IMG/VR virus record: IMGVR_UViG_3300029305_005724
Span: 64,001-128,000 of that record
Length of the DNA stretch: 64,000 nucleotides
Reading direction: 5' to 3' (one strand)
Source: a virus
Lineage: Duplodnaviria > Caudoviricetes
The notes beneath the pieces are model-generated. The model worked only from the letters and a program-made list of their open reading frames with translations, ran no database searches and was not told where the DNA came from. Below, one piece after another: positions 16,468 to 52,130 of this stretch. A program made the translations under genes and the position numbers. Each line of letters starts with the position of its first letter. The stretch's first letter is position 1.

Positions 16468-16543
16468 TTTCATTCTCCTTTTATGTGTATTTTGCTTTTC
16501 GTTGTTATTACTTTGTTTTTGAAACATTAACAACTTATTTTTA

Positions 16544-16565
16544 TCATAATTATAATATGTATCTA
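16544..16565 (-). promoter_or_regulatory. Early-type promoter
   Basis: TAGATAC-ATATTATA-ATTATGA. Confidence 0.6.
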
Positions 16566-16663
16566 AAAAGAAATATGCGATAGTCCGAAGACTATCGCAT
16601 ACGTACTTTATTACAATGAAAGGAGATAAACAAAATGAACTTCAACCGAAAACATCTTTGTTT
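16565..16663 (-). ncRNA. Candidate anti-RBS sRNA A (~99 nt)
   Basis: Promoter AACATCTATATA (16663-16674), anti-SD/anti-AUG tract GUUCAUUUUGUUUAUCUCCUUUCAU, 12-bp cUUCGg terminator. Confidence 0.55.
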
Positions 16664-16675
16664 ATATAGATGTTA

Positions 16676-17107
16676 TTACTTTCTGAAATATTCAGGAATA
16701 GAAGCTTCAACAAATTCTTTATCGATAGCTTTCATAACAACAGCAGATTTATCGCCATATTTAGCAATGAGATCATTCATTACTCTACGTTCCTGAATAC
16801 GAAGAGATACAAGCTCATCCCAAAGGGGATCATCCTCTTCCTTTGCCATATGGCAAACTGTAGTTCTGAGAAGAGTATTCACATTACCGTCAGCAAGTCT
16901 ATCAATCATATCCTGATTGATAACTCCAGCTTCCATCATAGCTTTGGCTTCATCAGATTTAATAAATTCTTTAATCTTCGCAGAAGGAAGATTGCTCAAA
17001 GTTTCAAAAACAACTGCCTCACGAAACTGATTAGGGTTCTTGAGGGCACTTTCTAACTTGACATCAGCAGATCCAAAGATCTTGCTGTTTACCATTTCCA
17101 TAAACAT
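16676..17107 (-). CDS. Putative head protein
   Basis: 143 aa; late promoter at 17133-17144; KLES, FREA, MMEA, FVEA sites. Confidence 0.6.
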   Translation of the reverse strand: MFMEMVNSKIFGSADVKLESALKNPNQFREAVVFETLSNLPSAKIKEFIKSDEAKAMMEAGVINQDMIDRLADGNVNTLLRTTVCHMAKEEDDPLWDELVSLRIQERRVMNDLIAKYGDKSAVVMKAIDKEFVEASIPEYFRK

Positions 17108-29470: not shown

Positions 29471-29562
29471 TGTATACGCACCTCCTAGTTTCATTTATCG
29501 ATATGTTGGCAGTTTAAGACTTTTTAGGCATTAAAAAGATATTACAAAGCCAACGATATAAT

Positions 29563-29916
29563 GAGAGATTATTTCGATTACGGGTATGTAAGCGTGTGGA
29601 TACAGGTGATCGATACTTTTATCAAAATGTATTTTGCATTTGATAAGAGGACATCTCTTATATAAGTTTATTAAGAACTCGAGAGCTTAATAAACTTTGG
29701 GAGGATATGAAAGCTGAAGAAGTATATTTCGTAAATATATAGACCCTAAACTATATATTTGCTATAGCGATATATACGTCTTTTCTAGATTTGGAGGTGA
29801 TGGCCCAAATCTAGAGAAAATAATGAGATGACTAATGAATGAAATGTATGTAAGGTCCCTTTATACAGGGCCCGGCCTATAGGCTGAGTCTAAGCAGCCT
29901 ATAGGTTTTACTTTTT
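29563..29916 (+). ncRNA. Candidate ~350 nt structured ncRNA
   Basis: Promoter AACGATATAATG (29552-29563), at least 6 stems, terminator CCTATAGGCTG/CAGCCTATAGG; no long ORF. Confidence 0.65.
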
Positions 29917-29933
29917 AAAAATAACATATATTT

Positions 29934-30015
29934 GAAGCTCGTGAGATTTTTTCTTTTCTGGTTTTATTCCTTTCACCCGTGTACTCAGTCCTAGAGTGCA
30001 CGGGGCTTTTATTTT
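29934..30015 (+). ncRNA. Candidate anti-RBS sRNA B (~80 nt)
   Basis: Promoter AACATATATTTG (29923-29934), pyrimidine tract with UUAUUCCUUUCA, terminator stem at 29976-30004. Confidence 0.55.
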
Positions 30016-36070: not shown

Positions 36071-37243
36071 ATGAATAAAATAAATTATGATTTCGGTGAA
36101 TTTCATAATGTGTTCGAAAGCATGCGCACGAAATCTAATGCTACTCCCGATGAATTGAAAACTCTGAAATATGAGCTTAATAGATTCTTCGATGATTCTA
36201 CGTGTAAAGATGTACTTTATACAAATAATCTTGACAATATGTTTTTCGGTATCAAGATAATTCCTATGATCGATGCAGACGAAATTTATGAATATCTGGC
36301 AGACAATGAGAAGATTCGTATTGAGAGCTACATCGTAGAGATCGATTCCAAACTTCTTAATCCTATTATTGATCTTAATAAGTTTGAGCTTACTGCCATT
36401 CTCCTCGAAGAGGTTGCTAAGATGGTTGGCGACTCTACTCCTATGGAAAATGCTCGCAATGCTCTTACACTCTATCTCTCTTCTAATAGAACTCATATTA
36501 AGATTTCTCAGTCTGTTCATTATAAGGAACTTCTTGCTTATGGCTTGAAAGACTATTTGTCGAAGTGTACCTCGCTATTCTATAAAGATGATATTACCGA
36601 TGTTAATAGTGATGAATTTGCGATCAGTTATTGTCTCGTAGACCATCTGATTTCAGGATATAACAAGATCAAGGGTGATAATCTCAAACTATATCAGGAT
36701 AGCGAAATCAGTAAGTTTATTGTATTTAGCTGGGCTTTGAGCTTGTATAATAATATTAAAATTCATAGAGTTGGTGCTCTTAAGACATTGGCTAGATCTA
36801 AGTCTCTTACTGGTTCTAGACTTGAAAAGATGGAAATAGATAACGTTATTCGTAGAATTCAGAGAATTGATGATAGCGTTGTTCTGGAAGCTGCTGAAAC
36901 GACGAGTGGCATCCGCCTTAAGATTAAGGAAAAACTTAAGAAGGCTCGTTTGAATAATCTTCGTACTATTGACAGCACTTTTTATGAGCTGTCTATGCAG
37001 GTAAGAAATGTAGAAGATGAGCATGATGCTCTCTATCTCATGAGACAGATTAACAACTGTATTTCTATTATCGATGAGTACAAGAATCTTCAAGACTGTG
37101 ATGAGTATGAGCAAAATAAGTGGAAAGAAGCATATGATAAGTTCGTACAGCTTCGTGACAAACTTTCCAGTACTGTCGTATATAAGAATAAACACTACGG
37201 AATTTTCGTAAATTACCCGGATATTGTAGAGAATCGTTATTAA
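36071..37243 (+). CDS. Putative head protein
   Basis: ATG at 36071 after GGAGG; promoter at 36007-36018; VFES and VLEA sites. Confidence 0.6.
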   Translation: MNKINYDFGEFHNVFESMRTKSNATPDELKTLKYELNRFFDDSTCKDVLYTNNLDNMFFGIKIIPMIDADEIYEYLADNEKIRIESYIVEIDSKLLNPIIDLNKFELTAILLEEVAKMVGDSTPMENARNALTLYLSSNRTHIKISQSVHYKELLAYGLKDYLSKCTSLFYKDDITDVNSDEFAISYCLVDHLISGYNKIKGDNLKLYQDSEISKFIVFSWALSLYNNIKIHRVGALKTLARSKSLTGSRLEKMEIDNVIRRIQRIDDSVVLEAAETTSGIRLKIKEKLKKARLNNLRTIDSTFYELSMQVRNVEDEHDALYLMRQINNCISIIDEYKNLQDCDEYEQNKWKEAYDKFVQLRDKLSSTVVYKNKHYGIFVNYPDIVENRY

Positions 37244-37252
37244 CAATAAAGT

Positions 37253-37394
37253 AAAAGTTACTATCTCCCTGCCGTGATGGAACTTTGCCGTAAACCGCGT
37301 GTTTGTGTTTTCATGTTGTTGTTCGATTTTCTCCTCCGTGTAAGTTTATATTTAAAATACCAGTAGAGGCATAGCCTCTACTGGTATGATTTTT
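37253..37394 (+). ncRNA. Candidate anti-RBS sRNA C (~140 nt)
   Basis: Promoter AACAATAAAGTA (37242-37253), 5' hairpin, tract GUGUUUUCAU...UUUUCUCCUCC, terminator stem at 37357-37387. Confidence 0.5.
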
Positions 37395-45385: not shown

Positions 45386-45937
45386 ATGGCAGAAAACAAC
45401 ACTACTACTGCTGCTGTAACTGTTAAAGAACTTCTTGGAGAAATCTCCAATGGTCTTTCGCAGGTCAGCTCGTCTAGAAAAGACGAAGTTCGTATTATGC
45501 AGGCTATGCTTAGTGATACCACTTATGAAGTAAGCGTTTACGGAAAAGATGGAATCGAAGGCACTTATAATCCTGCAAAAGATTTCCGTGGAATGTGTGC
45601 AAGCGTAATTTCTAATGCTGCAAGAGTTCCTGTTTCTGAAGCAGTTCATCTTATGGATGGATATGCTGTTCGTAAAGCTGAAGCTGCTAGCATGGTCAAT
45701 CTTTCTAAGGAATTTGTTAACACATTCCTTCAGACTGGCCGTAAGCTTCCTCTTGGTCCTCGTGAGGCATCTGATATTTCTCTTAGTCTTAAGAAGGTAG
45801 AAGCAAGTACTCGTCTCTATCCTCAGAAGATTGGCGTAAATGATGATGGATCCGACAAGTATTCCAAGACACCCACTACGGTTCCTGCTCATGATAGCAT
45901 TCGTGTGCATGCTCCTTGCCCTCCGTGGGTAAAGTAA
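45386..45937 (+). CDS. Putative HU/IHF-like DNA-binding protein with N-terminal extension
   Basis: C-terminal FLQTGRKLPLG...LKKVEASTRLYP...TVPAHDSIRV resembles the HU beta-arm pattern. Confidence 0.5.
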   Translation: MAENNTTTAAVTVKELLGEISNGLSQVSSSRKDEVRIMQAMLSDTTYEVSVYGKDGIEGTYNPAKDFRGMCASVISNAARVPVSEAVHLMDGYAVRKAEAASMVNLSKEFVNTFLQTGRKLPLGPREASDISLSLKKVEASTRLYPQKIGVNDDGSDKYSKTPTTVPAHDSIRVHAPCPPWVK

Positions 45938-47547: not shown

Positions 47548-48291
47548 ATGAAATTCCCTCATAAGAAAATAATTGCTTTCGAAGGCTTAGATAATTGTTT
47601 TAAAGAAACAAATTATAAAGCTTTCATTAATAGACTAAGATATGAATACGGTTCTGAAGCCGAAATTCATATAGAATCATTTCCTAGATATGGAAATCAA
47701 AATTGTATGGCTGTTGAGAAATGGCTTGATGGCTCATATGATAGAGAAATCTGTTTAAAGAATCCAAAAGCTGTCTGTTCTTTTTATATGACAGATAGGT
47801 TTGGATACTGGTTTGAACGAGTACATGGACAAAGATCTAATGCAGAGATATTGTATAGTACAGCAGCAGGCCAGAAGAAAACTTGCTTTGTATTTGATAG
47901 ATACAATATTTCTAATGCGATATATAATCCAAGAAATGCTGGTACGCCTTCTACTTTAGACATTACATATGAAACAACTGAATGTGGAATTCCTAAAGCA
48001 GATATCGTAGTATGGATGCGTATGAGAGATTTTAATGTTCTTGAAGAACTTATTGCGAAAAAGAAAAATAAAGATAAAAATGAACTCGATCTAGATTTTC
48101 TATACAATGCATGGGTTCGTTCGGAAAACTTTTTAACAAATCATATTCTTGAAGAATGTGGAATAAAAGTAATTGTAATTGAAATTCTTGATAAAGATGG
48201 AAATATTCGTTCTAAAAAAGATCTTGCTGATGAAGTATGGAATAAGATCATGGACGAAGAATTTCAATCTGGATTAGAATTATCTTTATAA
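47548..48291 (+). CDS. tmk: Thymidylate/dNMP kinase
   Basis: IAFEGLDNCFKET (degenerate P-loop), SFPRY, FDRY, PKADIVVW. Confidence 0.8.
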   Translation: MKFPHKKIIAFEGLDNCFKETNYKAFINRLRYEYGSEAEIHIESFPRYGNQNCMAVEKWLDGSYDREICLKNPKAVCSFYMTDRFGYWFERVHGQRSNAEILYSTAAGQKKTCFVFDRYNISNAIYNPRNAGTPSTLDITYETTECGIPKADIVVWMRMRDFNVLEELIAKKKNKDKNELDLDFLYNAWVRSENFLTNHILEECGIKVIVIEILDKDGNIRSKKDLADEVWNKIMDEEFQSGLELSL

Positions 48292-48311
48292 AATATTATG
48301 GAGGAAACAAA

Positions 48312-49712
48312 ATGAACAACAATGAAAATCCCTTTGTGGAAAAATCAACTGGTATCGTAGGGAAAATACGTACAAAATTTGGAGCTAAGAAAGTCGCAGC
48401 TCCTATCGAAAATCCGAACACTGGTATTATTAGACCATATCTTGTAGGAATGAATAATTGGGCAGATGTATGCTCTGAAGCATGTGCATGCTGCTGGGAC
48501 AAAGTCGTTCCTGAAGGATTTGAGAATGTTGCTGAGTATATAGCCAAGAGAACTAGAATTGGTCATACCTCGGTAATTGAGCATAGTAATTTTGTTCTTT
48601 ATATTTCTATTGACAAATTCTATGAAGAAGATCTTATCGAATTCCTTTCATGGAATAGATATCTTGAGACGGTAACTGCAAAGTCGGATGATGGATCTAG
48701 ATGGCATCTCCTTATTGGTGGTTCATTTAGAGGGTTCTCTGATCTTTACAGAGAGGCTGAAGATCTAAATAATCCAGTTCTTAAAGCTATTACTGGCTCT
48801 ATTTATAGATATTCCCATTCTGCATTGTTTGAAGATATTATTAAACTTGGTCTTCTTGATAAAACTATGTTTAATAATGCTGAACTTGATGAGAACTTTA
48901 ATCTTCTTACTCTTGATGGAGAAATTGTAAATGATACAGATCTTTATACTATTAAAGATATTGGTGATATTAGAAAACTTTACACAAATATCTTTAATAT
49001 TGACGAAGAGTTTGCAAAGAAGCTAACTACTTATGATCTTATCAAATTTGTGACGATTACAGTTCTATTTAAGAATATGAGTAGAACGTGTACTCATCAG
49101 CTGGTAAGACATAGAAATGCTATTACACAGGAATCTCAAAGATATGTCGATTATAGCAAGGCTTGTTTCAGCAGCCCCGAGATGTTTAAGCCAGAAAAGT
49201 ATGATGGCAATCATAAATATACAATTAGATTTGGTCCTTCTTCTCAGCTTCAGATGACACTTTCTGAAATTGGTGAGGCTACTTGTAATATTTATGAAAT
49301 GCTACGCAATCCTGTCGTTGCTGGAGCAGATTATGCATTACTAAAAGAAGACGCAAGAGCATTTTTACCTAGCAATGTGCAGTGCCGCAAAATCTATGTG
49401 ACATTTACTTATAAGAATTTCATCAAATTCCTCGATCTAAGAGAAGAACCTGCAGCTCAGGCTGAGATTCGTAAATATGCATCTGCAGTTGGAGAATTCT
49501 TCAGAACTTTGACTAAGTTCGATTCTAAAGAATTAATCAAGCTCTATACAAACCCTAGACTTCTTATTGAAGATCCTTGGAAAATAGATGCGTATGAAGG
49601 AATTGTTGAAGAAACAATTGAAATGGATGAAAAAGATATTATGAAATCTGCAGGATTTGATAAAGATGTAAATCTGGATTCTTCAGATATCCCCTCTGGT
49701 AGTGAGGTTTGA
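48312..49712 (+). CDS. thyX: Flavin-dependent thymidylate synthase, extended or tandem form
   Basis: GHTSVIEH, HQLVRHR-x-QESQRY, EDARAFLP, AQAEIR. Confidence 0.9.
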   Translation: MNNNENPFVEKSTGIVGKIRTKFGAKKVAAPIENPNTGIIRPYLVGMNNWADVCSEACACCWDKVVPEGFENVAEYIAKRTRIGHTSVIEHSNFVLYISIDKFYEEDLIEFLSWNRYLETVTAKSDDGSRWHLLIGGSFRGFSDLYREAEDLNNPVLKAITGSIYRYSHSALFEDIIKLGLLDKTMFNNAELDENFNLLTLDGEIVNDTDLYTIKDIGDIRKLYTNIFNIDEEFAKKLTTYDLIKFVTITVLFKNMSRTCTHQLVRHRNAITQESQRYVDYSKACFSSPEMFKPEKYDGNHKYTIRFGPSSQLQMTLSEIGEATCNIYEMLRNPVVAGADYALLKEDARAFLPSNVQCRKIYVTFTYKNFIKFLDLREEPAAQAEIRKYASAVGEFFRTLTKFDSKELIKLYTNPRLLIEDPWKIDAYEGIVEETIEMDEKDIMKSAGFDKDVNLDSSDIPSGSEV

Positions 49713-51235: not shown

Positions 51236-51389
51236 TCATTATCCTATTTAAAAATTTTAATTAAATGATTGAAGAGACGTCAGAATATCTGACGTCTCTT
51301 TTTCTTTTTATAACCCGTTTTGGTTGCATATTATATGAATGAAAACAGAAAAATAAATTAATAAAATCTAAATGAAAGGAGAAACCAAA

Positions 51390-52130
51390 ATGATAATCAA
51401 TTTATTCTGTGATGCGTCTATTGAGCTAGAGAAGAAAATTGCCTGTGGAGGCACATACATCATGGCTCAAATGGATGATGGTTCTATCCAAGAAATTGGA
51501 TTCAGAAGGGCTCTTCAGCTTCATGCTACAAATAACTCTTCTGAAATTTTAGCAATATGGCTTGGCGTTGTTGAGGCTTTAAAGCTTCGAAATATATACC
51601 CAAATGCTGTATTTCGACTATTCTCTGATTCTAAAATTTCGTTATATGGATTAAGAGATTGGATGAAGTACTGGATTGCAAATATGAAAGAAGATGGAAT
51701 ACTTATCTCATCATCTGGCAAACCAGTAATGAATCAACAAAGATTCATCGATATCTACAATATTATTGTAGAAAATAATCTGCATATTGAACTGTATCAT
51801 CAAAGAGGTCATGTCGGAGAATCTGGCAAGACTAGCTTGGATCAGGCTAGAGTGCAGTTTATTAGAGCCAATAAAGTAACCCCAGAAGCATTAGGATTGA
51901 GCATAGAATTCATTAGTCAATGTAATTCGAAAGTTGATAATTTGACTAGACAAGCGGTTCGATCTTATGTTTTTCATCATTCTATTCTACCTAATACAGA
52001 AGTAGAAAGAGTTGTACCAATGGATATGGCTATCAAGGATAATATGCTGCATCAATATATTCGATGTATCAATAAGAGTTCTCTTGAAGGCCTAACCAGA
52101 CATGATTTTAAGGGAGGCTATAATCAATGA
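51390..52130 (+). CDS. rnhA: Ribonuclease HI
   Basis: FCDAS, TNNSSE, FSDS, HQRGH, NSKVD; early-type promoter at 51321-51342. Confidence 0.85.
   Translation: MIINLFCDASIELEKKIACGGTYIMAQMDDGSIQEIGFRRALQLHATNNSSEILAIWLGVVEALKLRNIYPNAVFRLFSDSKISLYGLRDWMKYWIANMKEDGILISSSGKPVMNQQRFIDIYNIIVENNLHIELYHQRGHVGESGKTSLDQARVQFIRANKVTPEALGLSIEFISQCNSKVDNLTRQAVRSYVFHHSILPNTEVERVVPMDMAIKDNMLHQYIRCINKSSLEGLTRHDFKGGYNQ

Follow-up and report, generated by a model that had tools for sequence, protein, structure and literature searches.

A candidate late small RNA gene of anti-start design in an AR9-like gut jumbo phage

The window, that is the whole stretch of 64,000 nucleotides analysed here, corresponds to bases 64001-128000 of a 223,865-bp virus genome (~224 kb, ~90% complete), which occurs in metagenomes from animal faeces and from the bovine gut. 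Among the genes of this genome (referred to as G000) are those for split RNA polymerase subunits, a divergent DNA polymerase of family B and a phiKZ/AR9-group major capsid protein. Its nearest cultured relatives are AR9 and PBS1 (~30% identity), and it is an AR9/PBS1-like gut jumbo phage, presumably lytic. Relatives and other sequences used for comparison are designated G001, G003, G004 and by L-numbers. The strong Shine-Dalgarno (SD) sequences and the presence of a Tad8 gene suggest a host among the Bacillota. The Tad8 gene (type II Thoeris inhibitor, PF25189; 17236-17685, plus strand) adjoins the DNA polymerase gene, and is found at the same place in several relatives.

The locus of interest, on the minus strand between two protein-coding genes, contains a putative small RNA gene (sRNA A) and its flanking elements:

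16676-17107, minus strand: gene X, upstream of sRNA A, 143 aa, conserved in the clade
16663-16674, minus strand: AR9-type late promoter motif AACA-N6-TA, identified from its sequence, its enrichment, the AR9 consensus and a similar motif in most of the relatives that carry an insert
16628-16663, minus strand: predicted 5' hairpin whose first base is the predicted +1, loop GGUU
16610-16627, minus strand: predicted single-stranded anti-SD stretch, with UCUCCUUUC at 16626-16618; unpaired probability ~0.9
16565-16602, minus strand: predicted intrinsic terminator, with a 13-bp stem, a cUUCGg loop and a U tail
16545-16558, minus strand: early-type promoter motif (ATATTAT...) of the next gene, outside sRNA A, resembling the AR9 early consensus (PMC5312081)
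14215-16467, minus strand: downstream gene, beta'-type subunit of the non-virion RNA polymerase, 750 aa

Gene X, for which a search for a family or fold match returned none, carries its own late promoter motif 37 nt before its start. The sRNA A promoter begins one base past its TAA stop codon, with a predicted +1 at 16663; an earlier reading of this DNA from its letters (the sequence-only reading) had already pointed out this closeness to the stop, and that the RNA may also derive from the 3' UTR. The motif AACA-(6N)-TA/G is that of the mapped AR9 late promoters (PMC5312081). In the genome studied here, 33 of 127 leaders carry AACA-N6-TA before the gene, versus a mean of 6.3 and a maximum of 15 in shuffles, and the enrichment is seen only with the 6-nt spacer. 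sRNA A is thus preceded by an AR9-type late promoter, AACA-N6-T(A/G), of a kind enriched in the same genome, and the phage encodes AR9-like multisubunit RNA polymerase subunits. In AR9 itself, promoters of this type require uracil in the template strand. The window also contains, at 47548-49712 (plus strand), a dTMP-kinase-like gene and thyX; their presence in a phage with AR9-type promoters implies a thymine-DNA variant of the AR9-type polymerase.

Between the predicted +1 and the terminator, the body of sRNA A is 61 nt. Its anti-AUG (CAU, 16637-16635) is caged within the predicted 5' hairpin, which taken alone is no more stable than shuffles (z 0.07); most of the folding energy comes from the terminator, which is predicted to end the gene X transcript as well. 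The exposed anti-SD stretch is, according to the fold prediction, likely a seed or toehold. The layout is that of a trans-acting small RNA: a size within 50-500 nt, a promoter and an intrinsic terminator, no conserved open reading frame, and a single-stranded seed complementary to ribosome-binding regions, which in relatives is kept as a design and not as a sequence. The Rfam covariance models (including C4 and RsaE) gave 0 matches in the window (best E 0.87, 24.6 bits versus a cut-off of 60), and a tRNA scan found nothing. A near-perfect complement of sRNA A was sought in the 224-kb genome (~90% complete) and not found, the longest exact anti-start match elsewhere being 13 nt; the same search with the G001 module in its own records was also negative. 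We therefore rejected a cis-encoded antisense RNA, which requires a long perfect complement in the same genome.

The minus strand, assigned by the sequence-only reading from the cUUCGg loop, agrees with the promoter and the U tail as well. On the plus strand, the same letters could be read as a real translation start, that of a 53-aa open reading frame antisense to gene X (16635-16796). It has a strong SD and an ATG followed by an open frame of 53 codons, and a sigma70-like site lies upstream (16527-16556, plus strand). Promoter-like sites are nevertheless no commoner than in shuffles, the peptides at this place in relatives are unrelated (8-53 aa), the reading frame has no Pfam or PHROG match, and the three strand signals all indicate the minus strand. 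A plus-strand gene is thus very improbable.

To compare the locus we used relatives whose gene X protein is 59-66% identical. The adjacency of gene X and the beta' gene is kept across the clade, and a terminator is present at this slot in nearly all relatives, with or without an insert. It directly follows the stop codon in L004, L005, L009, L011, L202, L205-L207, L224 and L225; in others an insert of 44-90 nt separates the gene X stop from the terminator. These inserts fall into six sequence types (window phage, G001/L214, L195/L204, L196/L203, L197 and L199). An anti-(SD, 5-12 nt, ATG) pattern, chosen after the sequences had been seen, is present in six of the seven inserts tested (each with a shuffle p of 0.006-0.039), and AAC(A/T)-N6-T(A/G) precedes the insert in five of the seven. 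The inserts of L214 and L204 carry the anti-start pattern too; that of L196 has neither an anti-AUG nor a clear promoter. Pairing of the anti-AUG with the 5' arm recurs in G001 and L214, where the letters differ. This retention of the design while the letters are replaced is, on comparative grounds, the strongest evidence for what appears to be selection on the anti-start feature. The module shows no more than one change in three related strains, which is weak evidence of constraint because the neighbouring coding sequence changes at a similar rate. Scans of viral sequences with patterns for the loop found also in L214 returned ordinary gene starts. As a separate observation, the beta' leaders of L196 (2090-2118), L199 and L203 contain an upstream SD and an ATG-TAA start-stop element overlapping the real SD.

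The same comparison bears on a simpler reading, in which the stretch is only a long 3' UTR and terminator of gene X, its anti-start appearance being incidental or acting on mRNA stability alone. The terminator indeed serves gene X in all relatives, many of which have no insert; the insert sequence is not conserved, and the terminator supplies most of the folding energy. This reading does not account for six unrelated sequences which, at one slot, mirror SD-spacer-AUG, mostly with a promoter motif. Moreover, long UTRs are rare in this genome (73 nt from the gene X stop to the terminator, for a genome median of 10), and units of the same design stand alone away from 3' UTRs, e.g. unit B below. 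We therefore consider it improbable.

About 20 units built in this way were identified across four genomes; sister units B and C are in the window:

29934-30015, plus strand: sister unit B, with a late promoter, a 5' hairpin, an unpaired anti-SD and a terminator
37253-37394, plus strand: sister unit C, with a late promoter overlapping a stop codon, an anti-(SD+AUG) and a terminator; partly conserved in G001

Units C and H have an identical late promoter overlapping the stop codon of the preceding gene (window 37242-37253 and G000:C1:39049-39060), an arrangement also seen in unit A. The region before unit B (29495-29930) is free of genes, has several hairpins and is possibly a further non-coding RNA; the late promoter motif at 29507 (minus strand) serves a 273-aa gene. 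In another late unit, 7 kb before the window (G000:C1:56849-57080; L129), a closing stem encloses at least three anti-(SD+AUG) modules in tandem, and no own-genome target above the null was found for this unit. Unit F (G000:C1:195266-195412, minus strand, L131; L139; G004 41888, minus strand) has the same anti-SD/anti-start core in three phages. No outstanding own-genome partner was found for unit F either, and it is a good candidate for locating a conserved host target.

The sequence-only reading had proposed that sRNA A is near-complementary to the initiation regions of thyX and RNase H. The sequence strings it quoted are all present in the window, and its gene names are right (thyX, PF02511 and TIGR02170; RNase H, PF00075). 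We ranked 194 start regions of the whole genome by their pairing with sRNA A, opening energies included:

48300-48337, plus strand: thyX start region, rank 1 of 194, -24.3 kcal/mol; not significant against start-site nulls
51371-51393, plus strand: RNase H start region, rank 2 of 194, -24.0 kcal/mol; pairs with the whole toehold; no covariation in G001

For thyX, the start string begins at 48300, not at 48301, and the 13-nt match is exact, while the GAAAA and CTTTG blocks, described as in register, align only after a 1-nt bulge. Besides, the CTTTG match is largely accounted for by the 5' hairpin of sRNA A: it is not independent evidence, since it mirrors the 5' arm, which must pair with the anti-AUG. 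For RNase H the 12-nt match is exact (51371-51382). At the start at 45386 the shared letters form an exact 10-nt match, but its energy ranks only 51 of 194.

The hypothesis built on these matches is that sRNA A specifically represses its own thyX and RNase H, perhaps with a few other DNA-metabolism mRNAs, late in infection. The first two ranks (z = -3.4 for thyX and -3.3 for RNase H) speak for it, as do two kinder nulls: shuffles keeping the SD and the ATG fixed reach the best score in only 13 of 500 cases, and of 80 queries made of foreign Clostridia start regions only 3 reach a score as high. The comparison suggested at the outset, with dinucleotide shuffles, also favours sRNA A, which resembles a translation start far more than they do (0/300); this shows only that it mirrors start sites, and says nothing specific of thyX or RNase H, dinucleotide shuffles being the wrong null for anti-start sequences.

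Queries that are themselves start-site-like often match as well. Of 187 own start regions, 27 (14%) match another start region as well as sRNA A matches thyX, and exact matches of 13 and 12 nt are reached by 16-28% of start-region queries in four phage genomes. The original claim itself came with the warning that A-rich ribosome-binding regions match easily by chance. Foreign phage starts even fit sRNA A better than its own thyX (scores of 53 in G001 and 57.5 in G003, versus 49.5), and neither of these phages has sRNA A. thyX drops to the third rank when only the seed-to-loop part is used, and its leader is a sticky match, because sister units C and M select it too.

Covariation leaves thyX with a weak hint and gives none for RNase H. 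The G001 module, with its different letters, ranks its own thyX 3rd-4th and the thyX of the phage under study 181st, which is in favour of specific targeting. A shared orthologue with a rank product of 4 or less is, however, obtained for 13% of unmatched G000/G001 unit pairs and 5% overall, so that this covariation (rank 1 here, 3-4 in G001) is a weak hint, with an empirical chance of 5-13%. On the G001 thyX leader the anti-AUG falls out of register, and the RNase H leader of that phage does not fit its module (-2.6 kcal/mol). The match to thyX and RNase H is no better than chance for a start-site-like sequence. Specific targeting is unsupported since start-site-like queries often score equally and dinucleotide shuffles are an improper null; that sRNA A curbs thyX and RNase H late in infection is not established and appears unlikely.

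None of 32 modules beats its own start-site null (lowest p 0.10), and over 20 units the best own-genome z (-3.29) equals in practice the best foreign one (-3.30; p 0.45). A preference for early over late genes, at p 0.015 when genes were crudely classed, weakened to p 0.09, and foreign units were no different.

A target close to the slot was also considered: sRNA A could restrain either the adjacent RNA polymerase beta' gene through its leader, as a feedback, or a mobile HNH endonuclease. In the phage under study the beta' leader comes 11th among the 194 start regions, but matching each module to its own adjacent beta' leader gives no diagonal signal, i.e. no covariation, over seven phages (p 0.51 and 0.84; the G001 leader is incomplete). 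The G001 module pairs best with the start of an HNH/NUMOD4 endonuclease gene lying at a distance of 2.1 kb (53-nt duplex, -34.8 kcal/mol), and HNH genes are near the slot in L196 and L199 as well. However, the modules of L196 and L199 fit their own HNH starts poorly, and the phage under study has no HNH gene near the slot, its sole homologue pairing weakly. Such local control is thus quite improbable. The endonuclease gene concerned lies at L040:18795-19595 (minus strand; also L136), and the G001 duplex is not above the best obtained with foreign genomes.

We then consider mRNAs of the host. Two degenerate patterns gave no match in GTDB or metagenomes. An exact 22-mer gave four GTDB matches, one being the nusA-like start of RUI376, a rumen Clostridiales MAG; the nusA-like starts of RUI376 and of a relative (L109, L118) match sRNA A, that of L109 over 23 nt exactly (-31 kcal/mol). 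This candidate was set aside as a probable chance match, because three of the four GTDB matches come from unrelated phyla and RUI376 offers no good match to unit C. In ~400 Clostridia genomes, searches with unit A, with the multi-module unit and with a pattern for MNFN starts returned scattered unrelated genes. Clostridia start regions selected for matching pair with sRNA A at -26 to -32 kcal/mol, i.e. more strongly than thyX; in a host, sRNA A would therefore probably find partners that equal or surpass thyX.

Taken together, these data indicate that sRNA A is a real and probably functional late anti-RBS small RNA gene, with a likely role in trans, as judged from the anatomy of the locus, the enrichment of its promoter motif and the design kept as letters turn over. 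The proposal of a small RNA complementary to translation-initiation regions thus holds, with syntenic relatives keeping the design in different letters, while the naming of thyX and RNase H as its specific targets does not, given that start-site-like nulls often give equal scores. Our preferred reading, to which we assign a probability of about 50%, is that of a late small RNA gene masking ribosome-binding sites, probably of the host or of multiple mRNAs rather than those of thyX and RNase H. It also takes in the lack of own-genome specificity. The main targets would be other mRNAs, most plausibly host mRNAs; these are favoured by elimination only, because every unit fits a foreign genome at least as well as its own. 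Several mRNAs are probably targeted, since a U-rich seed pairs with both A and G.

For this late masking RNA we propose the following mechanism. The non-virion RNA polymerase of the phage would transcribe sRNA A (~98 nt) from the promoter at the gene X stop codon; sRNA A may also be the 3' end of the gene X message. A look for RNA sequencing runs containing this stretch listed none, which speaks neither for nor against transcription. The unpaired anti-SD stretch would pair first with the SD of a target mRNA. This pairing would open the weak 5' hairpin and extend over the spacer, the AUG and the first codons, and the start site so covered would be closed to 30S loading late in infection.

A broader idea, which we regard as doubtful, is that AR9-like gut jumbo phages possess a battery of exchangeable antisense guide RNAs, placed in fixed slots between a late promoter and a terminator, each mirroring the start of a host mRNA and rewritten upon a change of host. 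RNA-based post-transcriptional control is nearly undescribed in lytic jumbo phages. If host messages are silenced, the sequences of these small RNAs would point to the host and to infection-limiting genes, and programmable antisense tools would have a natural equivalent in them. Such a battery would give a lytic phage an RNA-guided, toehold-gated way to shut off chosen host genes.

In the literature searched, there is no description of such a family of small RNAs; engineered antisense oligomers directed at phiKZ are described, and no natural equivalent of them. The c4 antisense RNA of phages P1 and P7 acts in trans and blocks translation around a ribosome-binding site through exposed segments (PMC12197685). 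sRNA A would likewise be phage-encoded and pair with RBS regions through exposed segments. However, c4 belongs to the immunity of temperate phages, acts on a defined phage target (ant mRNA) and has its Rfam model, whereas sRNA A is late, from a presumably lytic phage, one of a dispersed set, with no defined target and no Rfam match.

RsaE/RoxS and related trans-acting small RNAs of Bacillota have a C-rich seed; this exposed pyrimidine seed pairs with the G-rich SD regions of several mRNAs. They are encoded by the host and conserved in sequence; in contrast sRNA A is encoded by a phage, its seed extends to the anti-AUG and its sequence is exchanged between relatives. By analogy, sRNA A would work like c4 and the C-rich-seed small RNAs of Bacillota, and is a member of neither. 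Small RNAs of the DapZ and MicL types are 3'UTR-derived, with an internal promoter; they are enterobacterial, Hfq-dependent and transcribed by the host RNA polymerase. As in these, the promoter of sRNA A is at the end of a coding gene and its terminator is common with the mRNA, but this promoter is one for a phage-encoded multisubunit polymerase.

The closest experimental precedent comes from AR9, i.e. from the same phage group. Its late transcript starting at 75478 (minus strand) was experimentally mapped, is abundant and is filed only as 'antisense to g090' (PMC5312081, Table S3); its step height is the highest among the rows of Table S3 considered here. This transcript (L257:770-879, minus strand) is in fact intergenic and, like sRNA A, has an AACA-N6-TA promoter, then an anti-SD near its 5' end followed by a long hairpin. 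It differs from sRNA A by the absence of a caging 5' hairpin before the anti-SD, and the likeness noted is one of layout. The idea put forward here can thus be tested in a cultured relative, AR9 owning a mapped late anti-SD transcript that may serve, by analogy, as a model for the putative family of anti-RBS small RNAs.
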